In this document: positions 15,142 through 53,376 of the stretch, in pieces
Layout: the number at the start of each line of letters is the position of its first letter
Position numbering within the stretch: the first letter of the stretch is position 1
Origin: Schmidtea polychroa
Lineage: Eukaryota
DNA length: 64,000 nt
Assembly: GCA_044892525.1 (NCBI GenBank)
Contig: CM097885.1
Location: 8,372,001-8,436,000 of the forward strand
Direction: 5' to 3'
Made by a program: the position numbers and the translations under genes
The notes under the pieces: generated by a model
What the model was told of the DNA's origin: nothing
Seen by the model: only the letters and a program-made list of their open reading frames with translations
Database searches by the model: none

Positions 15142-15503
15142 TATTATTACGCGCACGGGGAATATTATTATCATATATACTCTTAATCTATCCGACAAAA
15201 TATTCTATCCCTCTATGGGTATTGCTCATATGGGTAATGGTCAAAGGTGTACTACTCACATTCAACATGTCTCAAAGGGTATAATATAATTATTATTAAA
15301 TTCTGACCAACTTAAATCAATGAAGGGGTAGAACAAAAATATATTAAGTTGCGGTATTTTAAATTTAAAAATATTTTAAAAACTTATTTTGACACTAAAG
15401 TTTACTTAATTAACAAAGAGATAATTATTGCACATGCTTTGCATAAATATTATTATTTTTTAAATTTTCAATATTTTCTTTTAAAGTATTAACACGCGCG
15501 GGA

Positions 15504-15605
<102 letters not shown>

Positions 15606-16645: not shown

Positions 16646-17553
16646 TTTGGAATACATCTTGCGAATTGGACATATTTCTTAGTTTCTGATGTGGTGTCAA
16701 CTATCATTGCTAAAATTTATATTGATTTAAAAGCAATTAACTTACATTATCTAACATTTTATCGTCACAGGCTTGATAAATTAGGCAACTGTTATTTGTG
16801 GTATACTTTTTCAATGTCATTTCCCACCATAAAACACAGATACCTAAATATAATATATATATTTTAAAGAATTAATTCATGTCTTACATTAATAATAATA
16901 TTCTTCAGGTAGTACTTTACAATATCTAATTGATAAAACATCGGTTTTTTCCCATTTTTCTTGACATTCGTTGAAAGTTTACATAATTTAAGTCTGATAA
17001 TTCATGTTGAAGGACACCCACAATCAGCTAATTCATTTAAGAAATCCCGAACATAGCAATGTTTCACCATTTTGTCTGGTTCATTTTCTTCTATAATTCA
17101 TGTTTTAATAAGAAATCTCTAAATCCAGAACATAAGTCATTTAGTGTTTCACCATTTTGTTCATCTTCTTCATAATTATATAATTCATTTTCTTCATTAC
17201 TAAGTAAAATAATTAAAATATTTTAGTAAATTCTTTATTTACTTACTTTATGGATACTAAAACGAAAGAAATAACGTTATATCAGAATTATATTTAAATA
17301 ATTTAAATTTAGTTATTTAAACATATTTAAACACTTTAGTTATTTAAGCATATTTAAACATTAATATTATTATATAGTATAATTTTATATAATTTTATAT
17401 AATATTATAATATTATAATATTATGTATTGTAAATTTAATATATCCTTCATTTAATTTTTTTAATTCAAATATTTATAATGAAGATTCTTTGAATTAAAA
17501 AATATTCTGTTAGTATTTCCAGGCAGAAAACAACGAATTCAATAATTAAAATC

Positions 17554-20500: not shown

Positions 20501-21760
20501 TTCTCAAGTTTTGTCACTGATGTCCCCACAATGAATAAAATAACTTCTTAAGTAAATAATTTAAAGCAATAACCTTTGATATCAATCCCAATTAATTCTA
20601 AAGATTTCAAATATTTCATTGTGAAAACCAAGTAAATTGATCATTAACCCTAAACGACTTAATAAAACAGTGGATAATTAATAAAAAACTGGTTCTAAAA
20701 CATAAATTTAAATTACTGTGCAATAACATTCATCACAACCTAATAAACCTCTAAAACGATATAATTTCACAGGAACTATTATTAATTCATAGCTAAATAC
20801 TGACTATTTCCCTTTAAAATTTACCAATAAGAACATTGTCGATTTAAATAGAGATTTTAAACATTTCCACCAAATATTTCTATCATTTTAAACACCCCCT
20901 TAAAAATCATATATTACCATCTTAACCAACCGACTTTAATATATCAGACCTTTAATATATCAATTCTCTTAAAATCCATAGAAAATTCTTCAAAATATGA
21001 ATTTTATTTAATTGTTACAGACATCCTTCCATTGAAATAATTTAGTATCTAAATTCATGTAGTAAGAGCCCACTAAAAGATCAAAATTCACTAAAATCAA
21101 TATTTTCTACAAATATTTCACCACATTTACCATCAAATACCTAACTAGAGATGAAATATATTGATTGATCATAATTCTTCATCGATTCAGCTAATTATAT
21201 AGCAATTATAACGTGATATATCTTTCAAAATCACAAATTTCAGTATATTTTACAATAATTTTTACAAAAATTAAATAATAATCACTTGATTATTGTAAAA
21301 ACTCTAATTATTAACCTAACTGTCATTAAAAATATTATTATTTAAAAGTAAATTTAAAAACAAGTCAATAAAATATAGCAAATTAACAAGAAATTAATTA
21401 AATTTGTCTTAGAATTAACACTAAAACGTTAAATTTCAAAATATTCTTTCAATTATTCACAAAAAGGTTAGTAATAATGTTAGTAAAATCCCGCTAACTC
21501 TAAAAATTACCAATGAAATTAATGCTAAATAATAACCAAAAATTTGCCTAAATAAAACACACCAGTACCTTTACGACCAGTACCCTTACAACCAGTACCC
21601 TTACGAGCAGTACCCATAGAGGGAGAAAATATCTTGTCGGATAAACTCAGAGTATATATAATAAAACGAATTAACAATAACTCCATCAAATTGAATCAGT
21701 CAAATTAACACAAATTTTGATAAAAAATCTTATTCTAAAATGGTAAGAAGCGTAAAGTCG
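17554..21760 (+). repeat. Diverged internal direct duplication within the arm of B (17554-19873 vs 19874-21760), mirrored at ~22610-26815
   Basis: Both units start ttaattttcatgttgttagggttgtggcc and end aaaatggtaagaagcgtaaagtcg. The second lacks ~450 bp and differs by many indels. Confidence 0.85.
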
Positions 21761-24700
21761 AAAGATAATTTTAATAACACCGAGATAAATTAACAATATT
21801 ATTCTCAGGTGGTAAGAATCTTCATTAAAGTGAAGAAATTATAAGAACTACCAAATGCTATAAAATATTTAAACGAAATTAGTTTTGTTGTTTTATGACT
21901 TTCGGTTATATTTGAGTAAGTTTTCGATTGTCCCTTTTAACTTTCAGTGCTCATTTTCATTCAAAAGAGTAATGTATCTTAAATTATCTTTTGGAATATT
22001 TGTTTTTGAAATAATTAGTGTAAAATAGTAAATTTAATAATAAATTGTTAATATTAAAGGACTTAAAGAATAATTTAAAATATGAATTTATCATAATTAC
22101 TCTGTCAAATACAATTCACGGTTTCTTATGTAATAAAATAATCATTTGGGGATTAAATACTTTATTAAATAAAAGTTTATCGCATTATTAAAATATTTTA
22201 ATTCGTTAGTAGCTCATATAATAGAAATAATTTTATATATCCTCATCACTTATAGCCGCCGATTCTCGATTTCCCAATAATTATTATCATTTATATTCTC
22301 CCGGCAAATATTTCTTTTAAAATTGTATTAAATATTTTTTATTAAAGTGATCATTTTTATGAATTTTTATGAATTTTATGAAATAATTTTAAATAAATAC
22401 AATTAATATATATCCATGCCACTTCTCAGTATATTTTCATTAACCTTCCATAATCCAATAATGAATTATTCTAACACTTATTTTACCCCTTTGAAGTTTA
22501 TTATTAATTTATCACAGAATAATAAATAATTTCCTAACTTTAATGAAGATTCTTACCACCTGAGAATAATATTGTTAATTTATCTCGGTGTTATTAAAAT
22601 TATCTTTCGACTTTACGCTTCTTAACATTTTAGAATAAGATTTTTTATCAAAATTTGTGTTAATTTGACTGATTCAATTTGATGGAGTTATTGTTAATTC
22701 GTTTTATTATATATACTCTGAGTTTATCCGACAAGATATTTTCTCCCTCTATGGGTACTGCTCGTAAGGGTACTGGTTGTAAGGGTACTGGTCGTAAAGG
22801 TACTGGTGTGTTTTATTTAGGCAAATTTTTGGTTATTATTTAGCATTAAATTCATTGGTAATTTTTAGAGTTAGCGGGATTTTACTAACATTATTACTAA
22901 CCTTTTTGTGAATAATTGAAAGAATATTTTGAAATTTAACGTTTTAGTGTTAATTCTAAGACAAATTTAATTAATTTCTTGTTAATTTGCTATATTTTAT
23001 TGACTTGTTTTTAAATTTACTTTTAAATAATAATATTTTTAATGACAGTTAGGTTAATAATTAGAGTTTTTACAATAATCAAGTGATTATTATTTAATTT
23101 TTGTAAAAATTATTGTAAAATATACTGAAATTTGTGATTTTGAAAGATATATCACGTTATAATTGCTATATAATTAGCTGAATCGATGAAGAATTATGAT
23201 CAATCAATATATTTCATCTCTAGTTAGGTATTTGATGGTAAATGTGGTGAAATATTTATAGAAAATATTGATTTTAGTGAATTTTGATCTTTTAGTGGGC
23301 TCTTACTACATGAATTTAGATACTAAATTATTTCAATGGAAGGATGTCTGTAACAATTAAATAAAATTCATATTTTGAAGAATTTTCTATGGATTTTAAG
23401 AGAATTGATATATTAAAGGTCTGATATATTAAAGTCTGTTGGTTAAGATGGTAATATATGATTTTTAAGGGGGTGTTTAAAATGATAGAAATATTTGGTG
23501 GAAATGTTTAAAATCTCTATTTAAATCGACAATGTTCTTATTGGTAAATTTTAAAGGGAAATAGTCAGTATTTAGCTATGAATTAATAATAGTTCCTGTG
23601 AAATTATATCGTTTTAGAGGTTTATTAGGTTGTGATGAATGTTATTGCACAGTAATTTAAATTTATGTTTTAGAACCAGTTTTTTATTAATTATCCACTG
23701 TTTTATTAAGTCGTTTAGGGTTAATGATCAATTTACTTGGTTTTCACAATGAAATATTTGAAATCTTTAGAATTAATTGGGATTGATATCAAAGGTTATT
23801 GCTTTAAATTATTTACTTAAGAAGTTATTTTATTCATTGTGGGGACATCAGTGACAAAACTTGAGAAATATTGACTTAAAAGTTGGAAATCGACAACGGC
23901 TAAAGAAAATTGATCTTTATTGAAGGAATTTTATGATTTTAATTAGAAATTAAATCGGTTGAATATCAGTTAATCTATTGAAGGAATATTATTATCGGAT
24001 GGATAAGTGATATTTTGCCAAATTACCTTTGCTAAATATTATTTTAAATCACTAAAAATGAGAAAATTAAGCACTATTCATAAATTGATGACCCAAAATA
24101 TCAATGTTTTGGTTACTCAAACATCTTAAATTTCTCGCAAAGATATATTACGTCTAATGATCATCTAATTAAATTAGAAAAGAATTGTTACTTTATATTT
24201 TTAACTAATAAGCACCTTATTTGGTTAAATGATAACCATATTTCTATTATGACTCCTTTAATTATTTTTGCCTCAAACAAATTTACTCCAAATGATAAAG
24301 AATTTAAAATTATCAATGAATAATGACCATGTTATCTGGATCAATACCGTGAGTGTTTTAACAAAACTGAGCTCAAAGAAACTTTCCAGATAACAACTCA
24401 CCTGAATGTTTTGAACAAAAATGAGCGAAATTGAGAACAAACGATTAGATGGCGATTAACTTCTGGCCACAACCCTAACAACATGAAAATTAACGACTTT
24501 ACGCTTCTTACCATTTTAGAATAAGATTTTTTATCAAAATTTGTGTTAATTTGACTGATTCAATTTGATGGAGTTATTGTTAATTCGTTTTATTATATAT
24601 ACTCTGAGTTTATCCGACAAGATATTTTCTCCCTCTATGGGTACTGTTCACAATTGGTACTGCTCGTAAGGGTACTGGTCGTAAAGGTACTGGTGTGTTT

Positions 24701-26957
24701 TATTTAGGCAAATTTTTGGTTATTATTTAGCATTAAATTCGTTGGTAATTTTTAGAGTTAGCGGGATTTTACTAATATTTTTTTGTGAATTTCATGTTAA
24801 TTGAAAGAATATTTAAGGTTTAGTGTTAATTCTAAGATAAATTTAATTAATTTCTTGATAATTTGCTATATTTTATTAATTTTGATGATGATGATGACTT
24901 TGTAATGATAATTTGACTAAATAATTTTTTCATATATTTTTCTAAGAATATTTACACATTGATGAACTTTAAAATATTGAAAATCTAAAGTTGAAACAAT
25001 CTAATTTTTTCACGATGATGATATATTTAAAATCTACTTGAAAATTATTGTAAAATATACCTAAATTTAGTTTGAAAGATATATCATGTTATAATGGTTA
25101 TAATTATGATCAATCAATGAGATATTATCATCTCTAGTTAGGTATTTGATGACACATGTGGTTAAATATTTATTTTAATGAATTTTGATCTTTTAGTGGA
25201 CTCTTTGAATTTAGCTACTAAATTATTTCAATGGAAGAATGTCTGTGACAATTAAATAAAATTTATATTTTGAAGAATTTTCTATAGATTTTAAGATTTA
25301 TTAAAGGGCACAAGTGGATGAAATTATATTCGGTTGGATTTAGTGAAGGTTAAGATGGTAATATATACGATTTAAGGTGTTTTAAGGGGTAAAGATATTT
25401 GGTGAGGGATCGGTTAATGTTTTGAATATTTATATATTCTTATTGGTAAAATATCAAATTTTCAAGGGAAATAGTCAGCTATGAATAGTTCCTGTGAAAT
25501 TATATCGTTTTAGAGGTTGTGATGAATGTTATTGCACAGTAATTTATGTTTCAGAACCAGTTTTTATTAATTATCCACGGTTTTATTAATGGGTAATGAC
25601 TAATTTACTTGGTTTTGACAATGCAATATTTGAAATATTTAGAGATAATTGATATCAAAGGTTATTGCTTTAAATTATTTTATTTAACATTTTAAAGACG
25701 GACATTCATTATGAAGATAACGGTAACAAAAATATTGACTTAAAAGAGTTAGACATCGACAACTAAAGAAAATTTAACTTTCATGAAGGAAATTTATGAT
25801 TTTAATTATATTTCCAGAAATTAAATAGGTTGAATATCAGTTAATCTATTGAAGGAATATTGTTATCGGGTGGATAAATGATATTTTGCTAAATTACCTT
25901 TGCTAAATATTATTTTAAATGACTAAAAATAACAAAATTAAGCAATATTCATAAATTTATCGCACAAAATGTCCATGTTTTGGTTACTCAAACATCTTAA
26001 ATTTCTCGCAAAGATATATTACGTCTAATGATCATCTAATTAAATTAGAAAATAATTGTTACTTTATAATATATATTTCTAAATAATAGGCTCCTTAATT
26101 GGATAAATGATAACCATATTTCTATTATGACTCCTTTAATTATTTTTGCCTCAAACAAATTTACTCCAAATGATAAAGAATTTAAAATTATCAATGAATA
26201 ATGACCATGTTTTTCTCATATTATTATCTATTGTAACGAACATTAGATGAATAAATTAATTTTTGCTTTAAATGACTACAAAGTTAACCAATAAATTAGT
26301 CGCTCGACATAAGTGTAAAGTTACATTTAAAATATTCACAAATTTCTGATTATCTTACCTAAGAATTTCTAAATGATTAATATTGCGTCTTGTTGAGTGT
26401 GACCAGTACCCTTGCTAGCAATACCCATAGGGGGACAGAATATTTTGTCGGATAAACTAGGAGTATATGGTCTTTATTGATATATCAAAATACTGTTATT
26501 TATAAATTAACTAAAAATACTCAAAAATACTATATTATTTTACTGAATGATACCTTAAATGTTTTTAATATACATATTTCTAAAATAAATCAACAGTTCA
26601 AACCAACAACATGTATGGATGACCACCCATTGGTAATTTATTTCCAGTGTCACGTCCCTCAAAAATACCGTGAGTGTTTTAACAAAACTGAGCTCAAAGA
26701 AACTTTCCAGATAACAACTCACCTGAATGTTTTGAACAAAAATGAGCGAAATTGAGAACAAACGATTAGATGGCGATTAACTTCTGGCCACAACCCTAAC
26801 AACATGAAAATTAAGATTTTAATTATTGAATTCGTTGTTTTCTGCCTGGAAATACTAACAGAATATTTTTTAATTCAAAGAATCTTCATTATAAATATTT
26901 GAATTAAAAAAATTAAATGAAGGATATATTAAATTTACAATACATAATATTATAATA

Positions 26958-27668
26958 CAAGGGTGGGCACGCATGGGTTCAATAAGAGCCATTTTCCGAA
27001 AATTTATTTTTTCCAGAGCCACCATAGTAAAGTACATATTTTTTTTTATTTCATTAATTTGATTAAAGAGACTTAAACGCTATTAAAAAAAACAAAATAA
27101 TTATTTCAAACATTAAGTAACAAACATAAAAATCCATTAATAAAAAGTAATAAAATTTCTTGAATTAACGAAGACTTTTGGTCAAATCTTTGAAATTTGG
27201 TGTATACTTTGTTAAAGCTGTTCGCAGCAATTCTGTAAGATGCTGATTGGTCAACTGTGAATGATATTTCGACTTTACGAACTTCATTGTGGAGTACAAA
27301 GATTCACAACAATATGTTGTACCAAAAATTGAAATTAAACGGCAAGCAGCTTGTTTTAAGTTTGGATATTTTGCCTCTGGTACGAGTTTCCAAAATTCAA
27401 CTATAGAAGTAGATTTATGGTGCATTTGCAAAGCCTGGTCATCTTTCATATCTAATAACTCCAATTCCCCAACCGCTTTTTTAACAAGTATTACTTCAGA
27501 AATTGGAAATCCATCTTCAATAATATCACAAATAAATGGGTTCACAAAAAATGCAAATGTAGATTTATAAAATCGAATTCGATTATCAAGAATTCAATTA
27601 TCAATGAGCCGCAGTTTACTCAACGAAGAGCCGCATGCGGCTCTAAGAGCCGCATTTGCCCACCGTTG
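26958..27668 (-). mobile_element. Internally deleted hAT (Buster/SPIN/Charlie-like) element, 711 bp, present only in the right arm of B
   Basis: TIR caagggtgggca/tgcccaccgttg (1 mismatch); 8-bp TSD TTATAATA (26950-26957, 27669-27676; nnnTAnnn type). Absent at the mirror site (~17400-17425). Confidence 0.9.
27165..27545 (-). pseudogene. hAT transposase C-terminal dimerisation domain fragment
   Basis: EFWKLVPEAKYPNLKQAACRLISIFGTTYCCESLYSTMKFVKSKYHSQLT matches the hAT dimerisation pattern (FW...YP.L...A..L.S...TTY.CE..FS). Confidence 0.88.
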
Positions 27669-29485
27669 TTATAATATTATAATATTATATAAAATTATAT
27701 AAAATTATACTATATAATAATATTAATGTTTAAATATGCTTAAATAACTAAAGTGTTTAAATATGTTTAAATAACTAAATTTAAATTATTTAAATATAAT
27801 TCTGATATAACGTTATTTCTTTCGTTTTAGTATCCATAAAGTAAGTAAATAAAGAATTTACTAAAATATTTTAATTATTTTACTTAGTAATGAAGAAAAT
27901 GAATTATATAATTATGAAGAAGATGAACAAAATGGTGAAACACTAAATGACTTATGTTCTGGATTTAGAGATTTCTTATTAAAACATGAATTATAGAAGA
28001 AAATGAACCAGACAAAATGGTGAAACATTGCTATGTTCGGGATTTCTTAAATGAATTAGCTGATTGTGGGTGTCCTTCAACATGAATTATCAGACTTAAA
28101 TTATGTAAACTTTCAACGAATGTCAAGAAAAATGGGAAAAAACCGATGTTTTATCAATTAGATATTGTAAAGTACTACCTGAAGAATATTATTATTAATG
28201 TAAGACATGAATTAATTCTTTAAAATATATATATTATATTTAGGTATCTGTGTTTTATGGTGGGAAATGACATTGAAAAAGTATACCACAAATAACAGTT
28301 GCCTAATTTATCAAGCCTGTGACGATAAAATGTTAGATAATGTAAGTTAATTGCTTTTAAATCAATATAAATTTTAGCAATGATAGTTGACACCACATCA
28401 GAAACTAAGAAATATGTCCAATTCGCAAGATGTATTCCAAATGGCCCGATAGAGATGATAATTTTGAGATAGAATACCAGCAGAAGAGCGAGAAAAATTT
28501 GTAAATTAAATATAATAGGGTTGGGTGGGTCCTCTTTATCCCTTAATTAATATATATTTACAAGCTGATCGTCGTGGTGGGCGGTTGTAATCCAACTAGT
28601 GGGAGGCCTCTGTAAATATATATTTGTGTTAGTGAAAACATTAATTAATTTGGTTATAGTGCCAATGACGCATGTATTTTGAAATTATACGTTTCGAATG
28701 TGCTGGTAGTTGACTACCCATGCTAGGCGTAATGTTCCGTACGGAAAGCTATAATGCCCAGGTTCTTCTGACCCCACTTGGGGGAGGCACAGACGACCCT
28801 TGTGGACGCGAACAAATATCCACCGTGTCTTTCAGGCACAGATATTTGGTCACTGCTCATTAGGCCTGGCAATACTAAATGCATACACTTTGCCTTGTCC
28901 TCTCTTGTCTTGATTTTTATCGTTTAAATAGTGTGTGTGATAAGTTTTATTTACTAACCTTAATAAACCATAATATGCTTTAAGATCGAAAACCCTTGTT
29001 GAGTGTGAGTATTACCCTTGCTAGCAATACCCATAGGGGGACAGAATATCTTGTCGGATAGACTAGGAGTATATACACCCATGTTAAACAAGGTATGTGT
29101 ATATAGAATGTATGTGTAAAATTATCGCTCCTTATTGAAAATTTCATGTAAAGGCAAATACAGAATACTGCAAACATATAATAATTCTCTACCCCATAAC
29201 CTAGTGTGTAAAAATTATTTTAATAATAATAATAATAAAGTTTAATGGGTTGTGTGTGTGTGTGTAAAAATATTTTAGGTTTTTAATATTGATAATAATA
29301 ATGGTTAATGGGTTGTGTGTGTGTGTGTGTGTAAAAAATATTTTAGGTTTTCACTAATAATGATAATAATAATGGTTAATGGGTTGTGTGTGTGTGTAGA
29401 AAATATTTTAGGTTTTTAATACTGATAATAATAATAATGGTTGAGGGGTTGTGTGTGTAAACCATATTTTAGATTTTTCATTAAC

Positions 29486-29551
<66 letters not shown>

Positions 29552-29913
29552 TCCCGCGCGTGTTAATACTTTAAAAGAAAATATTGAAAATTTAAAAAAT
29601 AATAATATTTATGCAAAGCATGTGCAATAATTATCTCTTTGTTAATTAAGTAAACTTTAGTGTCAAAATAAGTTTTTAAAATATTTTTAAATTTAAAATA
29701 CCGCAACTTAATATATTTTTGTTCTACCCCTTCATTGATTTAAGTTGGTCAGAATTTAATAATAATTATATTATACCCTTTGAGACATGTTAAATGTGAG
29801 TAGTACACCTTTGACCATTACCCATATGAGCAATACCCATAAAGGGATAGAATATTTTGTCGGATAGATTAAGAGTATATATGATAATAATATTCCCCGT
29901 GCGCGTAATAATA

Positions 29914-29992
<79 letters not shown>

Positions 29993-32900
29993 TGAACTTG
30001 TATTTGAAATAATAATAATAATAATTTACGACATATTGAGTGTGAGCAGTACCCTTGTGACTTGTTGAATGTGAGTAGTACATTTGTGAGCAGTACCCAT
30101 AGGGGAAAGAATATCTTGCCGGATAAACTCGGAGTATATATAATTATAATAATAATAATAATAATAAAACTTAGAAAATAATAATATGTAATCAACGATT
30201 TAAACAAAATTATATTATTACGTATTCGATAATTAAAACAAAAATTATTAGTTCTAAAAATATTTGGCATCGTTCTAAAAATATTAGACATCGTTCTAAA
30301 AATATGACGTAATCGTTCTAAAAATATTAGGCATCGTTCTAAAAATATTAGGCATCGTTCTAAAAATATTAGACATCGATTACGTAATAGTTCTAAAAAT
30401 ATTAGGCATCGTTCTAAAAATATTAGACATCGTTCTAAAAGTATGACGTAATCGTTCTAAAAATATTAGGCATCGTTCTAAAAATATTTGGCATCGTTCT
30501 AAAAATATTTGGCATCGTTCTAAAAATATTAGACATCGATTACGTAATAGTTCTAAAAATATTAGGCATCGTTCTAAAAATATTAGACATCGTTCTAAAA
30601 GTATGACGTAATCGTTCTTAAAATATTAGGCACCATTCTAAAAATATTTGGCATCGTTCTAAAATTAAAAGGCATCGTTCTAAAAATATTAGGCACCATT
30701 CTAAAAATATTTGGCATCGTTCTAAAATTAAAAGGCATCGTTCTAAAAATATTAGGCACCATTCTAAAAGTATGACGTAATCGTTCTAAAAATAAGAGGC
30801 ATCGTTCTAAAAATATTAGGCATCGTTCTAAAAGTATGACGTAATCGTTCTAAAAATGTGATGAGTCATCGTATGATAAAAATCTATATCTCATTAGAAA
30901 GTTCTTGCACAGAGCTTTAAAATAAGCTATCGATCAATATAATATGTTGGCGGGAACAATAATTTTTGGGATGAAAAAAAGTAGGTCCCCGCTGGATCAC
31001 TTAATAATATTTTGAAAAATAATAATAATTTAACGTTGAAAAGATGGTGGTCATCAATTGTTAATAACATTAAAACTATTAAAGATATATAAGATACCTA
31101 TAGCTCATTCGAAAGGTCTTGGACTGAGCTTTAAGATGAGGTATCGGTTAATAAAGTTTGTTGGCGGGAACATTACTTTTGGGAATAAAAAAAGTAGGTC
31201 CCCGCTGGATCACTTAATTTAAAAAAAATTACGTAATAGTTCTAAAAATATTAGGCATCGTTCTTAAAATATTAGGCATTGATTACGTAATAGTTCTAAA
31301 AATATTAGGCATCGTTCTAAAAAAAATAAAATTTTTTCCCGGGGGGGGGAGGGGGTATATGTGATCTGGAGGGGACCTGATCTGGCGGGGACACATCCTA
31401 CTACTTAGAGTATTATTATGTTTGCAGTATTCTGTGTTTGCCTTTACAGGAAGTTGTCAATAAGGAGCGATAATTTTACACACACATTCTATATACACAT
31501 ACCTTGTTTAACATGGGTGTATATACTCCTAGTCTATCCGACAAAATATTCTGTCCCCCTATGGGTATTGCTCACAAAGGTACTACTCACACTCAACATA
31601 TCGCAAGGGTATATTAATTATGGTTAGTAAATAAAACCTATCACACACACTATTTAAACGATAAAAATCAAGACAAGAGAGGACAAGGCAAAGTGTATGC
31701 ATTTAGTATTGCCAGGCCTAATGAGCAGTGACCAAATATCTGTGCCTGAAAGACACGGTGGATATTTGTTCGCGTCCACAAGGGTCGTCTGTGCCTCCCC
31801 CAAGTGGGGTCAGAAGAACCTGGGCATTATAGCTTTCCGTACGGAACATTACGCCTAGCATGGGTAGTCAACTACCAGCACATTCGAAACGTATAATTTC
31901 AAAATACATGCGTCATTGGCACTATAACCAAATTAATTAATGTTTTCACTAACACAAATATATATTTACAGAGGCCTCCCACTAGTTGGATTACAACCGC
32001 CCACCACGACGATCAGCTTGTAAATATATATTAATTAAGGGATAAAGAGGACCCACCCAACCCTATTATATTTAATTTACAAATTTTTCTCGCTCTTCTG
32101 CTGGTATTCTATCTCAAAATTATCATCTCCATCGGGCCATTTGATAGTGATTTCATGGAATACATCTTGCAAATTGGACGTATTTCTTAGTTTCTGATGC
32201 GGTGTCAACTATCATTGCTAAAATTTATATTGATTTAAAAGCAATTAACTTACATTATCTAGCATTTTATCGTCACAGGATTGATAAATTAGGCAACTGT
32301 TATTTGTGGTATACTTTTTCAATGTCATTTCCCACCATAAAACACAGATACCTAAATATAATATATATATTTTAAAGAATTAATTCATGTCTTACATTAA
32401 TAATAATATTCTTCAGGTAGTACTTTACAATATCTAATTGCTAAAACATCGGTTTTTCCCATTTTTCTTGACAATCGTTGAAAGTTTACATAATTTAAGT
32501 CTGATAATTCATGTTGAAGGACACCCACAATCAGCTAATTCATTTAAGAAATCCGGAACTATAACTCCTTTAGTGTTTCACCATTTTGTCTGGTTCATTT
32601 TCTTCTATAATTCATGTTTTAATAAGAAATTTCTAAATCCAGAACATAAGTCATTTAGTGTTTCACCATTTTGTCTGGTTCATCTTCTTCATAATCATAT
32701 AATTCATTTTCTTCATTACTAAGTAAAATAATTAAAATATTGTAGTAAATTCTTTATTTACTTACTTTATGGATACTAAAACGAAAGAAATAAAGTTATA
32801 TCAAAAGTATATTTAAATAAATTAAATTTAAATAATTTAATTTAGTTATTTAAATATATTTAAACACTTTAGTTATTTAAGCATATTTAAACATTAATAT

Positions 32901-35900
32901 AACATTAATATAAACATTAATATATAGTATAATTTTATATAATTTTATATAATATTATAATATTATAATATTATGTATTGTAAATTTAATATATCCTTAA
33001 TTTAATTTTTTAAATTCAAAAATTTATAATGAAGATTCTTTGAATTAAAAAATATTCTGTTAGTATTTCCAGGCAGAAAACAACGAATTCAATAATTAAA
33101 ATCTTAATTTTCATGTTGTTAGGGTTGTGGCCAGAAGTTAATCGCCATCTAATCGTTTGTTCTCAATTTCGCTCATTTTTGTTCAAAACATTCAGGTGAG
33201 TTGTTATCTGGAAAGTTTCTTTGAGCTCAGTTTTGTTAAAACACTCACGGTATTTTTGAGGGACGTGACACTGGAAATAAATTACCAATGGGTGGTCATC
33301 CATACATGTTGTTGGTTTGAACTGTTGATTTATTTTAGAAATATGTATATTAAAAACATTTAAGGTATCATTCAGTAAAATAATATAGTATTTTTGAGTA
33401 TTTTTAGTTAATTTATAAATAACAGTATTTTGATATATCAATAAAGACCATATACTCCTAGTTTATCCGACAAAATATTCTGTCCCCCTATGGGTATTGC
33501 TAGCAAGGGTACTGGTCACACTCAACAAGACGCAATATTAATCATTTAGAAATTCTTAGGTAAGATAATCAGAAATTTGTGAATATTTTAAATGTAACTT
33601 TACACTTATGTCGAGCGACTAATTTATTGGTTAACTTTTTAGACATTTAAAGCAAAAGGTAATTTATTCATCTAATGTTCGTTACAATAGATAATAATGA
33701 GAAAAACATGGTCATTATTCATTGATAATTTTAAATTCTTTATCATTTGGAGTAAATTTGTTTGAGGCAAAAAATAATTAAAGGAGTCATAATAGAAATA
33801 TGGTTATCATTTAACCAAATAAGGTACTTATTAGTTAAAAATATATATTATAAAGTAACAATTATTTTCTAATTTAATTAGATGATCATTAGACGTAATA
33901 TATCTTTGCGAGAAATTTAAGATGTTTGAGTAACCAAAACATTGATATTTTGGATCATCAATTTATGAATAGTGCTTAATTTTCTCATTTTTAGTGATTT
34001 AAAATAATATTTAGCAAAGGTAATTTGGCAAAATATCACTTATCCATCCGATAACAATATTCCTTCAATAGATTAACTGATATTCAACCGATTTAATTTC
34101 TAATTAAAATCATAAAATTCCTTCAATAAAGATCAATTTTCTTTAGCCGTTGTCGATTTCCAACTTTTAAGTCAATATTTCTCAAGTTTTGTCACTGATG
34201 TCCCCACAATGAATAAAATAACTTCTTAAGTAAAATAATTTAAAGCAATAACCTTTGATATCAATCCCAATTAATTCTAAAGATTTCAAATATTTCATTG
34301 TGAAAACCAAGTAAATTGATCATTAACCCTAAACGACTTAATAAAACAGTGGATAATTAATATAAAACTGGTTCTAAAACATAAATCTAAATTACTGTGC
34401 AATAACATTCATCACAACCTAATAAACCTCTAAAACGATATAAGTTCACTGGAATTATTATTAATTCATAGCTAAATACTGACTATTTCCCTTTAAAATT
34501 TTACCAATAAGAACATTGTCGATTTAAATAGAGATTTCAAACATTTCCACCTTAACCGATCCCTCACCAAATATTTCTATCATTTTAAACACCTTAAAAA
34601 TCGTATATTACCATCTTAACCAACCGACTTTAATATATCAGACCTTTAATATATCAATTCTCTTAAAATCCATAGAAAATTCTTCAAAATATGAATTTTA
34701 TTTATTTGTTACAGACATCAGTCCATTGAAATAATTTAGTATCTAAATTCATGTAGTAAGAGCGCATTAAAAAAATCAAAATTCACTAAAATCAATATTT
34801 TCTACAAATATTGATTTTAGTGAATTTTGATTTTTTTAATGGGCTCTTACTACATGAATTTAGAAACTAAATTATTTCAATGGACTGATGTCTGTAACAA
34901 ATAAATAAAATTCATATTTTGAAGAATTTTCTATGGATTTTAAGAGAATTGATATATTAAAGGTCTGATATATTAAAGTCGGTTGGTTAAGATGGTAATA
35001 TACGATTTTTAAGGTGTTTAAAATGATAGAAATATTTGGTGAGGGATCGGTTAAGGTGGAAATGTTTGAAATCTCTATTTAAATCGACAATGTTCTTATT
35101 GGTAAAATTTTAAAGGGAAATAGTCAGTATTTAGCTATGAATTAATAATAATTCCAGTGAACTTATATCGTTTTAGAGGTTTATTAGGTTGTGATGAATG
35201 TTATTGCACAGTAATTTAGATTTATGTTTTAGAACCAGTTTTATATTAATTATCCACTGTTTTATTAAGTCGTTTAGGGTTAATGATCAATTTACTTGGT
35301 TTTCACAATGAAATATTTGAAATCTTTAGAATTAATTGGGATTGATATCAAAGGTTATTGCTTTAAATTATTTTACTTAAGAAGTTATTTTATTCATTGT
35401 GGGGACATCAGTGACAAAACTTGAGAAATATTGACTTAAAAGTTGGAAATCGACAACGGCTAAAGAAAATTGATCTTTATTGAAGGAATTTTATGATTTT
35501 AATTAGAAATTAAATCGGTTGAATATCAGTTAATCTATTGAAGGAATATTGTTATCGGATGGATAAGTGATATTTTGCCAAATTACCTTTGCTAAATATT
35601 ATTTTAAATCACTAAAAATGAGAAAATTAAGCACTATTCATAAATTGATGATCCAAAATATCAATGTTTTGGTTACTCAAACATCTTAAATTTCTCGCAA
35701 AGATATATTACGTCTAATGATCATCTAATTAAATTAGAAAATAATTGTTACTTTATAATATATATTTTTAACTAATAAGTACCTTATTTGGTTAAATGAT
35801 AACCATATTTCTATTATGACTCCTTTAATTATTTTTTGCCTCAAACAAATTTACTCCAAATGATAAAGAATTTAAAATTATCAATGAATAATGACCATGT

Positions 35901-38421
35901 TTTTCTCATTATTATCTATTGTAACGAACATTAGATGAATAAATTACCTTTTGCTTTAAATGTCTAAAAAGTTAACCAATAAATTAGTCGCTCGACATAA
36001 GTGTAAAGTTACATTTAAAATATTCACAAATTTCTGATTATCTTACCTAAGAATTTCTAAATGATTAATATTGCGTCTTGTTGAGTGTGACCAGTACCCT
36101 TGCTAGCAATACCCATAGGGGGACAGAATATTTTGTCGGATAAACTAGGAGTATATGGTCTTTATTGATATATCAAAATACTGTTATTTATAAATTAACT
36201 AAAAATACTCAAAAATACTATATTATTTTACTGAATGATACCTTAAATGTTTTTAATATACATATTTCTAAAATAAATCAACAGTTCAAACCAACAACAT
36301 GTATGTATGACTACCCATTGTTAATTTATTTCCAGTGACACGTCCCTCAAAAATACCGTGAGTGTTTTAACAAAACTGAGCTCAAAGAAACTTTCCAGAT
36401 AACAACTCACCTGAATGTTTTGAACAAAAATGAGCGAAATTGAGAACAAACGATTAGATGGCGATTAACTTCTGGCCACAACCCTAACAACATGAAAATT
36501 AAGATTTTAATTATTGAATTCGTTGTTTTCTGCCTGGAAATACTAACAGAATATTTTTTAATTCAAAGAATCTTCATTATAAATATTTGAATTTAAAAAA
36601 TTAAATTAAGGATATATTAAATTTACAATACATAATATTATAATATTATAATATTATATAAAATTATATAAAATTATACTATATATTAATGTTTATATTA
36701 ATGTTTATATTAATGTTTAAATATGTTTAAATAACTAAATTAAATTATTTAAATTTAATTTATTTAAATATACTTTTGATATAACTTTATTTCTTTCGTT
36801 TTAGTATCCATAAAGTAAGTAAATAAAGAATTTACTACAATATTTTAATTATTTTACTTAGTAATGAAGAAAATGAATTATATGATTATGAAGAAGATGA
36901 ACCAGACAAAATGGTGAAACACTAAATGACTTATGTTCTGGATTTAGAAATTTCTTATTAAAACATGAATTATAGAAGAAAATGAACCAGACAAAATGGT
37001 GAAACACTAAAGGAGTTATAGTTCCGGATTTCTTAAATGAATTAGCTGATTGTGGGTGTCCTTCAACATGAATTATCAGACTTAAATTATGTAAACTTTC
37101 AACGATTGTCAAGAAAAATGGGAAAAACCGATGTTTTAGCAATTAGATATTGTAAAGTACTACCTGAAGAATATTATTATTAATGTAAGACATGAATTAA
37201 TTCTTTAAAATATATATATTATATTTAGGTATCTGTGTTTTATGGTGGGAAATGACATTGAAAAAGTATACCACAAATAACAGTTGCCTAATTTATCAAT
37301 CCTGTGACGATAAAATGCTAGATAATGTAAGTTAATTGCTTTTAAATCAATATAAATTTTAGCAATGATAGTTGACACCGCATCAGAAACTAAGAAATAC
37401 GTCCAATTTGCAAGATGTATTCCATGAAATCACTATCAAATGGCCCGATAGAGATGATAATTTTGAGATAGAATACCAGCAGAAGAGCGAGAAAAATTTG
37501 TAAATTAAATATAATAGGGTTGGGTGGGTCCTCTTTATCCCTTAATTAATATATATTTACAAGCTGATCGTCGTGGTGGGCGGTTGTAATCCAACTAGTG
37601 GGAGGCCTCTGTAAATATATATTTGTGTTAGTGAAAACATTAATTAATTTGGTTATAGTGCCAATGACGCATGTATTTTGAAATTATACGTTTCGAATGT
37701 GCTGGTAGTTGACTACCCATGCTAGGCGTAATGTTCCGTACGGAAAGCTATAATGCCCAGGTTCTTCTGACCCCACTTGGGGGAGGCACAGACGACCCTT
37801 GTGGACGCGAACAAATATCCACCGTGTCTTTCAGGCACAGATATTTGGTCACTGCTCATTAGGCCTGGCAATACTAAATGCATACACTTTGCCTTGTCCT
37901 CTCTTGTCTTGATTTTTATCGTTTAAATAGTGTGTGTGATAGGTTTTATTTACTAACCATAATTAATATACCCTTGCGATATGTTGAGTGTGAGTAGTAC
38001 CTTTGTGAGCAATACCCATAGGGGGACAGAATATTTTGTCGGATAGACTAGGAGTATATACACCCATGTTAAACAAGGTATGTGTATATAGAATGTGTGT
38101 GTAAAATTATCGCTCCTTATTGACAACTTCCTGTAAAGGCAAACACAGAATACTGCAAACATAATAATACTCTACCCCATAACTTAGTATGTAAAAATTA
38201 TTTAAGGTTTTTTCACTAATAATAATAATAATTATAATAATAATAATAATAAAGTTTAATGGGTTGTGTGTGTGTGGAAAAAAATATTTGAGGTTTTCAC
38301 GAATATTGATAATAATAATGGTTAATGAGTGTTTTTATGTTTTTGACTAATATTTGCAATAATAATAATGGTTAATGGGTTGTGTGTGTAAAAATATTTT
38401 ATGTTTTTGACTAATATTTGC

Positions 38422-38460
<39 letters not shown>

Positions 38461-38571
38461 GTTTAATGGGTCGTGTAAAAAATATTTTAGGTTTTTCACT
38501 AATATTTGCGTTAATAATAATAAAGTTTAATGGGTTGTGTGTGTAAACCATATTTTAGATTTTTCGTTAAC

Positions 38572-38604
<33 letters not shown>

Positions 38605-38781
38605 GTTTAATGGGTTGTGTGTGTGTGGAAAAAAATATATATTTTAGGTTTTCACTAATATTCATAATAATAATGGTTAATGAGTGTTTTTATGTTTTTG
38701 ACTAATATTTGTAATAATAATAATAATGGTTAATGGGTTGTGTGTGTGTAAAAATATTTTATGTTTTTGACTAATATTTGC

Positions 38782-38832
<51 letters not shown>

Positions 38833-38943
38833 GTTTAATGGGTCGTGTAAAAAATATTTTAGGTTTTTCACTAATATTTGCGTTAATAATAATAAAGTTT
38901 AATGGGTTGTGTGTGTAAACCATATTTTAGATTTTTCGTTAAC

Positions 38944-39036
<93 letters not shown>

Positions 39037-39398
39037 TCCCGCGCGTGTTAATACTTTAAAAGAAAATATTGAAAATTTAAAAAATAATAATATTTATGCA
39101 AAGCATGTGCAATAATTATGTCTTTGTTAATTAAGTAAACTTTAGTGTCAAAATAAGTTTTTAAAATATTTTTAAATTTAAAATACCGCAACTTAATATA
39201 TTTTTGTTCTACCCCTTCATTGATTTAAGTTGGTCAGAATTTAATAATAATTATATTATACCCTTTGAAACATGTTGAATGTGAGTAGTACACCTTTGAC
39301 CATTACCCATATGAGCAATACCCATAGAGGGATAGAATATTTTGTCGGATAGATTAAGAGCATATATGATAATAATATTCCCCGTGCGCGTAATAATA

Positions 39399-39462
<64 letters not shown>

Positions 39463-39867
39463 TGAACTTGTATTTGAAATAATAATAATAATAATTTACG
39501 ACATATTGAGTGTGAGCAGTACCCTTGTGACTTGTTGAATGTGAGTAGTACCTTTGTGACCATTACCCTTAGGGGGACAGAATATCTTGTCGGATAGACT
39601 AGGAGTATATATAATAATAATCATAATAATAATATTAATAATAATAATAATATTGATTAAAACTTTGAAAATAATTCTTTGAAAATAATACTTTGAACAA
39701 TATTTGATGTAAAAGTTCCTGAAATAATCATGAAAATGTTGAAAATCGTGAAAATATTGAAAATGTAGAAAATTATGAAAATATTGATAATTATTAAAAA
39801 ATGCAAATGATGAAAATGTTGAAAATCATGAAATTGATGTAGAAATTAAGTTTTATGAATAATTGCA

Positions 39868-39930
<63 letters not shown>

Positions 39931-41058
39931 TTTGAAAATAACATCTTCCACATGGGCGTTAATATTTTAAAAGAAAATATTGAAAATTAAAAAATAATAA
40001 TATGTAATCAACGATGTAAACAAATTATATTATTACGTATTCGATAATTAAAACAAAAAATTATATAATCAATGATTTAAACAAATTATATAATCAACGA
40101 TTTAAACAAAATTAAATTATTATATAATCGATAATTAAAACAAAATTATTAGTTCTAAAAATATTAGGCATCGTTCTAAAAGTATGACGTAATCATTCTA
40201 AAAATATTAGGCGTCGTTCTAAAAGTATGACGTAATCATTCTAAAAGTATTAGGCATCGTTCTAAAAATATTTGGCATCGTTCTAAAAATATTAGACATC
40301 GATTACGTAATAGTTCTAAAAATATTAGGCATCGTTCTAAAAATATGACGTAATCATTCTAAAAATATTAGGCATCGTTCTAAAAATATGTGGCATCGTT
40401 CTAAAATTATGACGTAATCAATCTAAAAATATTTGGCATCATTCTAAAATATTAGACATCATTCTAAAAATGTGATGAGTCATTGTCTTTGTTCTAAAAA
40501 TGTGATGAGTCATCGTATGATAAAAATCTATATCTCATTAGAAAGTTCTTGCACAGAGCTTTAAAATAAGCTATCGATCAATATAATATGTTGGCGGGAA
40601 CAATAATTTTTGGGATGAAAAAAAGTAGGTCCCCGCTGGATCACTTAATAATATTTTGAAAAATAATAATAATTTAACGTTGAAAAGATGGTGGTCATCA
40701 ATTGTTAATAACATTAAAACTATTAAAGATATATAAGATACCTATAGCTCATTCGAAAGGTCTTGGACTGAGCTTTAAGATGAGGTATCGTTCAATAAAA
40801 TTTGTTGGCGGGAACATTACTTTTGGGAAGAAAAAAAGTAGGTCACCGCTGGACCAATTAATTTAAAAAAAATTACGTAATAGTTCTAAAAATATTAGGC
40901 ATCGTTCTAAAAATATTAGGCATTGATTACGTAATAGTTCTAAAAATATTAGGCATCGTTCTAAAAAAAAAAAATAAAATTTTTTCCCGGGGGGGGAGGG
41001 GGTATATGTGATCTGGAGGGGACCTGGTCTGGGGAGCCCACATCCTACTACTAACAAT

Positions 41059-43554: not shown

Positions 43555-43684
43555 ATCGAAAGTGCTAGTCGATCGCTGTCCATTTGTCAGCAGCCATTTT
43601 TCTATATAGTAGTATGTAGTAAGGACTCCAGCGCACTTTCAAGGTCATGGAATATCAAGATCAAATATAGACCAATCGAATCAT

Positions 43685-44262
43685 TTATTTTTTAAATTAA
43701 CATTTTATTTAATTACTTCTTTTTTAATTTTTCTTTTTAATTTTATTAATTAATTATTTTATGATGTTATATTTTAATTACTTACTTTATTTAATTTTTA
43801 ATTTATTACATTTAATTAATTTATTAGTTTATTAATATTTTATTTTAATTACTTACGCTTTATTATTATTTATTTTTATTTTTATTTTTTTTATTTTATT
43901 TTTTTTATTTTTTTATTTTTTTAATTAATTTATTTATATTTTAATTTAAATTTTATTTAATTACTTCTATTTATTTATTTTTTTTTCTTTTTAATTTTAT
44001 TAATTAATTATTTTATGATGTTATATTGCAATTACTTACTTTAGTTAATTTTTAATTTATTACATTTAATTAATTTATTAGTTTATTAATATTTTATTTT
44101 AATTACTTACGCTTTATTATTATTTTTTTTTATTTTTTTTTTAATTAATTAATTTATTTTTTAATTAAAATTTTATTTAATTACTTCTATTTATTTATTT
44201 ATTTTTTTTTCTTTAATTTTCTTAATTAATTATTTTATTATGTTTTTATTTTAGTATTATTT

Positions 44263-44307
<45 letters not shown>

Positions 44308-44320
44308 TTTTTTTTAATTT
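43685..44320. repeat. Extremely AT-rich tract of ~3 imperfect ~230-250-bp units
   Basis: ttaattaattattttatgatgttatatt...ttacttacttta recurs at ~43745, ~44000 and (degenerate) ~44222. Confidence 0.7.
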
Positions 44321-44620
44321 TACATTTACATTATATTCTAACAAGAGGTAAATTATAACAATAATATTTCAGTTTGAATAAAATTTTAATTAGAAATTAT
44401 TTAATTTATTATAAAATAAAACGCTGAGTTAATTTTGGATAAACCGGATATTAATTTTTCGGAAAAAATAAATAAAATAAACACAAAAATAATATTTCTT
44501 ACTTGAAACTAATTATCTAAATTAATTGGACAAATGAATAATTAAATGATAAAACACATTTTAATTAACTAAGTCAAATAATTCACAATATATATTTTAT
44601 TATTCACATAAATTTAATTG

Positions 44621-47511
44621 TTAAAGTGCTTGTTTCGATTTGCATTCATTTGTAGACGGAGCAGTTGCAATATGCATTTGACGAATCTTATAGTGACCGT
44701 AGGCATAGCTTTCATTAGAATTGAACCAATATCTTTTATCATCCAAACATTGGAGAGCTCGTTTTTCTGTAATGAAAGTATACAACTGATGATTAACACT
44801 TCCTATTCTCTTTTGTTGGATGCTCACTGTTCCACCATCAGTATACACTTTTTTATAAGCTTCATGGGTGATATTAGAATTTGTAAGACTTATTCCTTTG
44901 GCTTTTAGAGTGTTTTTATCGCCTTGGAGTGAGTAGCATTTGGGTCGAAGAAACACCCATTCTTTATATTGATTTCCTTTATTCTCATCCTTAACTTTCC
45001 CGATTACCGAACAAATTTTATCTGAGAACAACGGATCAGTCACTGGATAATTTGAAGTATCTAGGAGCCCATCTTCAATCATTTTTGGATATAGTTGTAA
45101 GCGTAAATCAACATTTTTACACTCTAAAAAGAAGGAATCTGTGTCACCGGCTACGATATTAATTTGACAATTGAATTCTTCTCTATAACTCTGTAGTTCT
45201 TTATATTGAAACTGGTACATGCGAAGTTTGGATAAATCAAGTACGGTTTGTCCAATATACATTGGTCTATCTAAACACAGAATTTCCATATTGAGTATAA
45301 CAGCAATGAGATCATCCGCAATCTTAATGCTACGAGGAAACATAGGATGACTACAATAAGTTATCAATCTTTTGCTTTTGTTGCATAATCTCAAATTTAT
45401 ACGTTTCTTCAAGTTTTCCACAGTTTTACCGTATAAACTGTTGTTCTTTAACTTATAATAATCTCGCTGAAACGAATCCGTACTAGCTGCTCTCATTTTG
45501 GTATTGTAATCAATATAGCCTTTGAAAATAGCTACTTGCTTGAATTCTACAGCACGATTAACTTTTGTGACTTTTGCGCCGTAACTCAACCACTCTGTCA
45601 AAATTCTACCATTAACTACATAGTTTTTCTTAGGCTCATGAGTTAACAACAGCTTTTCAACTTTACTACCAGGCGGATAACAAAGCTCAGGAGCTATAGG
45701 TAAATCATCTAGATTATCTTGTATACTATCAGGAATGACGATGTCAACCTCTAGAACATATCCACGATCTCCATCAAACTCATCCCCATTTGTACATCTT
45801 TCAACAATACCATTCATTTCAGTCTGATCATTTATCCATCTAAATTCACCAACAGGAAGTTTTTGCGACAGCGCCCATCCATATAAATTATTAACATCTA
45901 GGTATGACATTTGTGTTGATTCATCAGCTTCAACATGATGTTTGTTGATAAATGTCATTCCACCACGAATACCAGTTTCAAATAAACGGTAAAGCTCTGG
46001 ATCTTGAATAAGTTCTACCGGTTCAGGTAACTGTTTAATAGCTGATGCCCAACTTAATCCGGGTATGGAAACAAACGATAGAGCCTCAAGTCCATCTTCG
46101 TCAAATGTTTTTTCTCTGAAAGCTTCAAAAACATCGGCCAACAGAAAAACATCCAGCTTGAGATATATTAGCATGTAATCTAGCAGTGTCTCACAGTTGT
46201 ATTGTCGCCAGATTCGATTTGCATGTATATAATCTTCTTCACTAACTCCCTCCCAAATCGGTGGTAATTCTGTTATTGACTGTAAAACATCCATTGATGT
46301 AGCCATATCATAAGGAAAAATGGTTTTACAAGTCATCATCTGTGATTCGAAAACATCTGAGGTCAGTGGAAGACATGGTAAATTTTTTGATAAATTTGCC
46401 AAGCTGCTATTTAAAAATTGTAAAGAATCAATGAATCTAATTCTTCTGCCTTTCGATGTCGCTGTAAGTGTGAGAAACTTTTCTGTTGATTGAGGAATAA
46501 CATTTAAATTCCAATCGGGGAATTTTCCAATTGCATATTTTAATATATGATGAATGTCATATCCACGAAGATTATGAAATACAACAGGTAAAGACGGATT
46601 GATTCTTCTAGCCAAGTTGCAATCTTGACACGCTGCTCCGAGATATTGACCAGTAAAATGATCATGATCTCGAACAGGTATATTGATAATCTTTTTACAA
46701 AGGTAGCAATGAGTTTGATTCGTAAATTCTTCCTGCTGTTCCCAAGTGAGTTCCATCATTTCCTTTGATCCATTAATTTTATACCACGGATAAACTATGT
46801 CTGTAGCTATATCATCCAATGCTTGTATGAACTGAATGATACAGTTTTTCCCAACAAATGTTTCATTTCGGATCGGACAACCTTGATGAAGAAGCACAAA
46901 TTCAGATGCAATCGGCTCATGTTTTTGGAAGTGTTTGTCATCTAGAGGTAATATCGATTCAAAGTCCGCGTAGACAACAAACTGCTGTTTTATAGTTTTA
47001 CTCCAGTCTTTAAATTCGATATATTTATTCTCTGGCATTGAGTATAGAGTCGTCCGCTCCACATTCTTCCTACAAAGACCTATATGTCTTTCAAAAGCAG
47101 GACGTTTTTGAAACCCATGAAGACATGTATGACACCAATGTGATTGGATTCTGACTCCTTCTACTCTATCTATGTAATTGAGCAGTCGATCGAGATTAGT
47201 TACAGCCAAAAAATGATAATTTAATTCTAAAATTTAGTTAATATTTTTAATGATTAAAGGAAATATTACCTTCTTCAATCAATAAGAGATATATCTGAGA
47301 TCCCGTCGAAGTACTTCTATATACCAAGTCAACGAACGGATTCTTGAAAATATCATTAGTTTTTTGTTTAATTGGATCTTTATTATATTTGAGAACATTG
47401 ATCGCTAGATTTGGATTCATTGCTTCGAATTGGCAAATGTTAACCAACTTCATCGGAAACCATTCAAATTTCCATTTTAAGTCTTAAAAACAAAATTCAA
47501 TGATATATGAC

Positions 47512-47566
<55 letters not shown>

Positions 47567-47815
47567 CCACTTAAGTTATATTTTGTTGTTCTTTCTCTAT
47601 CCCGACGTATGTCATCATAACGCAATACGGCCAATATGCTATATAAAAAGCAGAATTGATCATTATTTTGAACATTAACTAAAGCCTGGCAGTTTTTCAG
47701 GTAATTTGGCGTTTTAATGTAACTTGAACCTAAGTAAATATCTTGATTTATATATAATAATGTAAATAAACTTACCAGATACATGTATTATGTCTGATAA
47801 TTTAGTTAAAATCAT
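44621..47815 (-). CDS. polB: Protein-primed family B DNA polymerase (Polinton/Maverick type, with endonuclease VII-like insert), intron-containing; complement(join(44621-47226,47270-47482,47568-47729,47776-~47815)); 5' end uncertain or truncated
   Basis: Exo I VYADFES, CYLC...VRDHDHFTGQYLGAACQDCNL, Exo II FHNLRGYD, Exo III YLKLDV, IRGG, motif A YLDVNNLYGWAL, motif B KLKNNSLYGKT, motif C GDTDS, RPKCY, KAKGI. Upstream exons give GSSYIKTP...VNVQNNDQFCFLYSILA and FPMKL...FEAMNP.LAINV. Three phase-1 GT-AG introns restore one frame. Confidence 0.9.
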
Positions 47816-47862
47816 AGTAACTTCTAATATATAACTTCTAATATAAATCACTGTGAAGTTTT

Positions 47863-53372: not shown

Positions 53373-53376
53373 TATT

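Follow-up and report, generated by a model that had tools for sequence, protein, structure and literature searches.

A palindromic, polymerase-only Polinton derivative with an intron-split gene in Schmidtea polychroa

Analysis of a 64-kb stretch of the Schmidtea polychroa genome (the window; GCA_044892525.1, contig CM097885.1) revealed that the polymerase gene it carries belongs to a real, young and multicopy variant of the Polintons, which lacks the gene set of an autonomous element and has real introns in its core gene. We refer to this palindromic, polymerase-only Polinton derivative as family A. The window gene is likely the 5′-truncated arm of one such element, which would have been copied by snap-back and inserted by an integrase acting in trans. 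A first-pass annotation had offered two readings of the gene, a domesticated Polinton polymerase (pPolB) or an intron-bearing Polinton lineage, and the second is supported by the behavior of the introns, the other copies and the relatives described below.

The window copy and the abundance of its family

Removal of the three phase-1 GT-AG segments (46, 85 and 43 bp; Table 1) leaves exons of 40, 162, 213 and 2606 nt, in total 3021 nt, with a sole, terminal stop codon, and the last exon matched Pfam PF03175 at E 4e-31 in a profile search. The positions, ends and phase of these segments, and the single frame produced by splicing them, were all reproduced from the first-pass annotation, and its stop-free last exon of ~868 codons proved to be 867 codons plus the stop. 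The catalytic motifs it had seen are likewise retained, as six exonuclease and polymerase motifs are kept in 28–30 of 30 family-A copies. The introns had also been likened in size to those of the host BRF1 gene; this holds for the lengths of 43–46 bp, as two BRF1 introns are 45 bp long, but not for the 85-bp intron, which results from an (AT)n expansion.

Table 1. Features of the family-A copy and of a related element in the window.
Feature	Position	Strand	Observations
Surviving part of family-A arm; promoter side, center and second arm absent	43608..47830	-	Homology to 29 other copies spans ~43608 to 47830
Terminus AGTAGTATGTAGTAAGGACTCC, inserted in Gypsy gag gene	43608..43629	+	129 forward and 125 reverse exact matches genome-wide; control 0
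AT-rich subterminal repeat region in the terminus-to-stop-codon interval	43677..44326		Length varies by copy
Last exon, 867 codons and stop: predicted-vOTU invariant His, then exonuclease and polymerase domains	44621..47226	-	
Intron 3, phase 1, 43 bp	47227..47269	-	42–43 bp in 28/28 measurable copies; site common to L216, L220 and P0005
213-nt exon	47270..47482	-	213 nt in 27/28 copies
Intron 2, phase 1, 85 bp via (AT)n expansion	47483..47567	-	43–101 bp across copies; family A only
162-nt exon with predicted-vOTU invariant Cys	47568..47729	-	162 nt in 25/27 copies
Intron 1, phase 1, 46 bp, in linker behind terminal-protein-like domain	47730..47775	-	Site common to L216 and L220
Remnant of 444-nt exon; the Met codon at 47815 is internal	47776..47830	-	
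14-bp tandem duplication at truncation point	47818..47845		
Nested gene-less palindrome, a separate related element with AGTAGTAGGATGTG ends	8168..41052		One element, flanked by target duplication AACAAT

Where no element ends had been visible on first pass, a Polinton end (AGTAGT) lies at 43608. The terminus there, AGTAGTATGTAGTAAGG, is common to all 25 loci with a match to the probe (30 were searched), and the flanks of these loci are unrelated. The insertion target was a Gypsy gag/protease fragment (window 41094–43607), whose continuation past the element is absent from the window. On the opposite side, homology to other copies ends at 47830, at the 14-bp tandem duplication. Because the reading frame extends upstream past the equivalent of this position in other family-A copies, the window copy is 5′-truncated, and the ATG at 47815, which had been taken as the start of the gene, is internal. 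The absence of an integrase or capsid gene adjacent to the window copy was borne out.

Searches of the 781-Mb genome (four large contigs) revealed at least 52 copies of the family-A polymerase at 97–100% identity (52 were scored among 18,482 first-look candidates). Thirty-nine of the 52 scored copies are stop-free, and 28 form 14 head-to-head pairs. The 22-mer at the family-A end has 254 exact matches in the genome, and two mutually exclusive sub-patterns of the end have 230 and 66 matches; in all, the genome holds about 150 family-A elements or more. Those that we opened are part of these ~150, lie mostly on contig C1 and were drawn from the first 100 ends of each pattern. A perfect 6-bp target duplication flanks 27 of the 29 paired-end elements among them, ~5 of the 27 duplications sitting in AT microsatellites, and 6-bp duplications were also found at 4 of 4 end pairs from the terminus-probe loci. 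As in Polintons, the terminal inverted repeats open with a short tandem repeat, (AGT)n. Domestication of a single host gene is excluded by homologues that are this numerous, carry ends and are flanked by target duplications. At one place (L177, L306 and L307; G000:C1:178.67–178.70 Mb), a tandem array was observed in which several family-A polymerase copies lie within one end pair.

Palindromic structure, selection and gene content

Full-size family-A elements are palindromes of 10–14 kb, near-perfect from end to center, with two head-to-head polymerase genes. In six elements of 10–13.3 kb, the inverted arms occupy 79–100% of the length. The smaller paired-end elements are deletion derivatives, some of them gene-less; 16 of 21 retain an inverted arm of >300 bp, and five are without one. 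Family A likely arose once, by what would have been copy-back starting at the end of a full Polinton where the polymerase lies, as one asymmetric center of 320–375 bp is common to the full-size elements L038, L039, L042 and L043; it also occurs inside L031, L035 and L040. The center and promoter region of L039 (3450–3823) was observed to have TGACGTCA palindromes, which are presumably CRE-like, and TTACGTTGCGGTATTTTAAAA repeats.

The two arms of one element differ at 0–6 positions per 2601 nt (four pairs), and different elements differ at a median of 47 (325 pairs). Private changes (4–9) are shared by both arms in three of four arm pairs, and in one pair the same two stop codons are present in both arms. 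Such sharing could alternatively stem from gene conversion after insertion. Over 26 elements pN/pS was 0.22, and the shared variants comprised 59 synonymous and 33 non-synonymous changes, which shows that the polymerase protein was under purifying selection during the spread of the family.

The palindromes might also have moved passively, with the polymerase hitch-hiking, helpers carrying out replication and integration, and chromosomal gene conversion keeping the arms alike. The element with the same two stops in both arms would fit such passive movement, as would gene-less derivatives with family-A ends (L129, L137, L141, L145 and L168) and the wide spread of ~750 elements of another end type. 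However, the low pN/pS, the synonymous excess in shared variants and the near-universal retention of the catalytic motifs all argue against it, and we consider it quite improbable.

The elements of the other end type terminate in AGTAGTAGGATGTG, for which there are 739 and 752 genome matches, and include the gene-less palindrome nested in the window. All six that were sampled have target duplications; four are gene-less, and two contain a decayed polymerase ~55% identical to that of family A. The tie between the window gene and these palindromes proposed on first pass stands in part. Both kinds have the same architecture, AGTAGT ends and 6-bp duplications, and a 136-bp block is 76–79% identical between the gene-less palindrome and the promoter side of family A. 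Family-A elements do not, however, carry AGTAGTAGGATGTG ends, for which the first-pass annotation had proposed to check full-length relatives. The 3.6-kb spacing that had been taken as a hint of a link is uninformative, because both kinds of element are abundant. The gene-less palindromes and family A are thus of related design and belong to different families; it is possible that the family-A polymerase acts on the gene-less palindromes in trans. Within the gene-less palindrome, a block at window 10020–10152 is related to the family-A center and promoter region.

We screened 80 and then 20 stretches, including the middles of eight of the largest paired-end elements, by tblastn with the integrase, ATPase, protease, capsid and TBP-like proteins of three complete Polintons. 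In these 100 stretches, no integrase, ATPase, protease or capsid gene belonging to family A was found. The family-A elements screened therefore lack both the element-encoded retroviral-like integrase and the packaging ATPase, protease and major and minor capsid genes of an autonomous Polinton. The core-gene matches between family-A ends lie in nested elements from other families: one is a mirror element, and four are complete and have polymerases of their own. Four flanking matches are decayed remnants. L188, L172, L169 and L045 were rejected as parent Polintons, as they are decayed remnants of other families; L188, the best of these, has no copy at >80% identity. A complete family-A parent was not found in these 100 stretches, though one may have been missed.

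Two families of complete Polintons are candidate helpers. The first, with AGTAGTG ends, has at least 150 integrase copies that are 97–100% alike (148 of 150 are stop-free over the matched part) and a polymerase 26% identical to that of family A. In the second, the polymerase is 55% identical and uninterrupted at the three intron sites. Only the first 6–7 bases of the ends are shared between family A and these candidates. Polymerase-only palindromes also occur in the clade of this second family, a sister clade, where the enzyme of L109/L110 and L111/L112 groups with that of the complete Polinton L115; the complete and polymerase-only forms of this clade show the route from complete element to palindrome. 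In L109 (7243–8135) and L110 (1–784), which represent a palindrome with an intronless polymerase of that clade, the inner arm and center are 81–95% identical to family A, a mosaic which suggests that polymerase genes have been exchanged between palindromes.

These observations also bear on whether the family-A palindromes arose as defective forms of a complete family-A element, a Polinton or an infecting polintovirus, that still exists, unsampled or unassembled, and supplies the cognate integrase. The sister clade offers a precedent, as complete elements (L115/L116) and polymerase-only palindromes (L109–L112) have nearly the same enzyme there. Integrases usually favor their own ends, and the ends surveyed were the first 100 per pattern. 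Against these points, core genes in the 100 stretches occur only in nested elements of other families or in decayed remnants, the best of which has no close copy. We regard a by-product origin of this kind as rather unlikely, and favor palindromes that are copied by their own polymerase and integrated in trans.

Several nested elements were seen in this screen. The mirror element (L161–L163; G000:C1:259300492–259320765) belongs to the AGTAGTG family and has capsid, integrase and ATPase genes in both arms, with no polymerase match. It is nested in a family-A element and is the complement of a polymerase-only palindrome. Family-A elements also contain nested complete Polintons (L292/L293, L294–L296, L300/L301 and L302/L303) that come from two other families and each have a polymerase of their own; this nesting may be by chance or by preference.

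Introns of the polymerase gene

The three phase-1 segments behave as real introns when family-A sequences are compared. Among 30 copies, intron 1 was 46–104 bp long in 27 and found in all three frames (48 bp in 19 of the 27; this common form is in frame and stop-free), intron 2 was 43–101 bp long in 27, again in all three frames (43–58 bp in 22 of the 27), and intron 3 was 42 or 43 bp long in 28, the other two copies not being measurable. GT..AG ends were present in 27/27, 25/27 and 28/28 copies of introns 1, 2 and 3, respectively. The 162- and 213-nt exons that they flank were fixed in length, while the introns varied. Uninterrupted homologues lack exactly 16 residues of L023 at intron 1 and 15 at intron 2, and at intron 3 the frame changes. 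Among 113–131 arm matches, in which overlapping loci were counted repeatedly, none was seen to have lost an intron exactly; three "short" rows were considered as exact losses of intron 2 and rejected, as L305 retains a 15-bp remnant of that intron. Family A thus departs from the usual state of Polintons, in which core genes are intronless.

Upstream, 73 arm matches revealed two further length-variable segments, set between exons whose lengths (229 and 50 nt) do not vary. A third upstream segment is required to preserve the frame, and the first exon is homologous to P0002 (E 8.5e-9). Together these findings suggest that the family-A polymerase gene probably has six phase-1 introns, so that the three annotated initially are correct for the window copy but fall short for the gene of other copies. 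The upstream candidate introns were observed at L023:77–543; all are phase 1, and one apparently splits the start codon. Two tiny leader exons at L216:180–290 are peculiar to that locus.

Evidence on splice junctions came from contigs of runs presumed to be RNA, which were aligned to L023:60–3000 only (introns at 988–1035, 1198–1242 and 1456–1498); an alignment to the window copy itself gave nothing. In run X1, a contig starts at 1497 and has 13 loose letters that come from the end of the exon before intron 3, the intron having been skipped exactly. Run X4, which has another organism label, contains a joint from 1455 to 1504 with five other letters, equivalent to the exact removal of intron 3; its contig is 87% identical and may be an intronless DNA relative. 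Run X5 had no exact intron joint among the 15 joints listed. In X1, X2 and X4, some contigs run unspliced through intron 1 or through candidate introns upstream of it. These runs provide partial support for splicing: of the junctions that the first-pass annotation had proposed to check, that of intron 3 was apparently spliced in contigs of two runs, but no exact joint for introns 1 or 2 was among the rows listed.

The intron sites were also compared across relatives. Of 125 homologous proteins, 76 read through all three sites uninterrupted, 39 do not reach any of them, and nine are open at the sites that they cover; the remaining one, P0005, carries 15 extra residues at site 3. Matches were found at 69 metagenome and viral loci, 54 of which are open at all three sites. 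L216 (56% identical) and L220 have phase-1 GT-AG introns of 43–48 bp exactly at sites 1 and 3 and none at site 2, and L226 and L228 start with an acceptor-like end at site 3. A single clade for the four intron-bearing rows was rejected (4 changes, p-AU 1.4e-5) in a quick tree of 19 hand-chosen rows, the group having been named before that tree but after earlier ones. L216 is sister to the intronless L217–L219, one of which is a complete Polinton. In sequence, the introns of family A and L216 show no significant likeness (234 and 878 of 2000 shuffles). An old presence of introns 1 and 3 in this polymerase clade, followed by repeated losses elsewhere, is probable; it is a simpler account than three gains in parallel at both of these sites, although unrooted trees cannot separate gain from loss. 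Intron 2 was probably gained in family A.

It might be argued that the gene is a domesticated host gene, or that the palindromes are assembly artefacts and the intron-like segments neutral pseudogene insertions, based on the host-sized introns, the single end of the window copy taken by itself and the unspliced contigs. This is hardly credible in view of the hundreds of ends, the two-sided target duplications, the common asymmetric center and small arm differences, the identical intron sites in distant relatives, and the exact skips of intron 3 in runs presumed to be RNA.

The polymerase protein, a proposed mechanism and known systems

The family-A polymerase is 48–56% identical to the polymerases of the complete Polintons L113, L115 and L219. 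Cys156 and His259 are invariant in 64 aligned rows; the Cys is encoded in the 162-nt exon and the His three residues after intron 3. A structure model of the homologue L209 (pLDDT 93.8) would place intron site 1 in the linker behind an alpha/beta domain. In Foldseek searches, this domain had weak matches to Y-family polymerases (E of at least 0.014, ~115 columns), and the model had no OTU match among the rows listed; no match of any kind reached E 0.001. A resemblance of the terminal-protein domain to Y-family polymerases, and the order terminal protein, vOTU, exonuclease, polymerase, are described in PMC11161782. A PDB sequence search with the polymerase alignment gave 0 matches. When viral contigs were scanned with a single protein there was no match, and an alignment-based scan of them yielded seven loci with 26–33% identity or a short match. 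Many close homologues (L209–L230) were found alone on metagenome contigs of 2–5 kb; palindromic architecture may be hidden in such data, since short-read assembly would collapse the arms to one.

Beyond what was observed directly (copy number, ends, target duplications, the palindrome, missing genes, selection and intron behavior), we infer the following mechanism. Host Pol II would transcribe from the center outward, and the spliceosome would excise about six phase-1 introns. Splicing would be needed to bring the polymerase into one protein with the terminal-protein-like domain and with both the Cys and the His of the predicted vOTU protease. The enzyme would then prime at the AGTAGT ends, displacing one strand, which is self-complementary over nearly its whole length and could snap back, re-forming the duplex end. 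Copying of this strand through the loop would keep the arms alike. A retroviral-like integrase provided in trans, likely by complete Polintons of the same genome, would produce the 6-bp duplications.

With Polinton/Maverick elements (Eupolintoviridae/adintovirus-like), family A shares a pPolB with exonuclease and polymerase domains, probably preceded by a terminal-protein-like domain and a predicted vOTU (order as in PMC11161782), and the inverted ends with a short terminal repeat, the 6-bp duplication and the size of 10–14 kb by which Polintons are defined in PMC4196379 and 10.1101/2023.08.22.554363. It differs in having no integrase, ATPase, protease or capsid genes, in its inverted arms, which are 5–6.5 kb long and hold the gene whereas those described for Polintons are 100–1500 bp, and in the spliceosomal introns of its core polymerase gene. 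As far as the sources describe them, intact vertebrate Mavericks have no introns (PMC8097293), and nematode Maverick core genes are called intronless (10.1101/2022.07.12.499685). Spliceosomal introns are present in other Polinton-like elements, namely introner-bearing dinoflagellate eupolintoviruses (PMC12166617) and nematode Maverick cargo (10.1101/2022.07.12.499685), and are described there as young introner insertions or as part of host-derived cargo. In contrast, those of family A are short, all phase 1 and dissimilar in sequence, lie in the core polymerase and share positions across lineages that are ~55% identical. Copy-back or snap-back defective viral genomes, as described in PMC6140465, would share with family A a template-switch origin, long inverted arms from duplicated ends and helper dependence; they are RNA-viral, usually non-coding and transient, whereas family A is integrated in the germ line and coding. 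Neither polymerase-only palindromic Polintons nor conserved introns in Polinton polymerases were found in the mostly open-access papers searched, which did not extend to Repbase; a consensus of family A might be listed in the supplements of planarian genome papers.

Among protein-primed linear plasmids, Neurospora kalilo reportedly has a hairpin/inverted-repeat deletion derivative, and yeast pGKL1 has derivatives of this kind. Like family A, these are protein-primed linear replicons cut down to an inverted duplication of one end, as hairpin or duplex. They reside in organelles or the cytoplasm and do not integrate with target duplications, whereas family A is nuclear, is integrated at 150 or more places, and has an intron-split and selected polymerase.

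In PMC4196379, Polinton replication through a racket-like single-stranded intermediate is argued from sequence alone. A young, high-copy, perfect fold-back that encodes only a polymerase would be a natural product of such a mechanism and would make Polinton copying directly testable; the snap-back model predicts fast-renaturing, protein-capped extrachromosomal DNA and an integrase in trans. Polintons are reported to be de-repressed in a planarian in which the nuclear PIWI has been silenced (PMC8532177). With introns in its gene, the core polymerase depends on the host spliceosome for expression, which explains why surveys based on ORFs cut such genes short or overlook them. As the introns occur patchily but at identical sites, they also allow loss to be tested against parallel gain in a lineage of DNA virus-like elements. 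We can also put forward, tentatively, a wider reading in which polymerase-only palindromes make up a class of their own: nuclear replicons that copy themselves, parasitize integrases and have outlived their parent Polinton. Together with mirror capsid-integrase-ATPase elements and gene-less palindromes of this genome, they would amount to a Polinton system that is in effect multipartite. The ancient introns of the polymerase clade would have been lost repeatedly and precisely, so that an RNA intermediate would have had a part in how a DNA virus-like element evolved.

During these studies, we noted further features in the window. The host BRF1/TFIIB-type gene lies at 3113–5400, and a 92% identical partial duplicate of it is present at 49708–51067, 46 kb away. 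A Gypsy-like element at 52500–60645, in which no pol was seen, has two 870-bp LTRs, a gag gene and a fusion glycoprotein of mononegavirus type (PF24664), and resembles Burro elements as far as these are described in PMC6431247.
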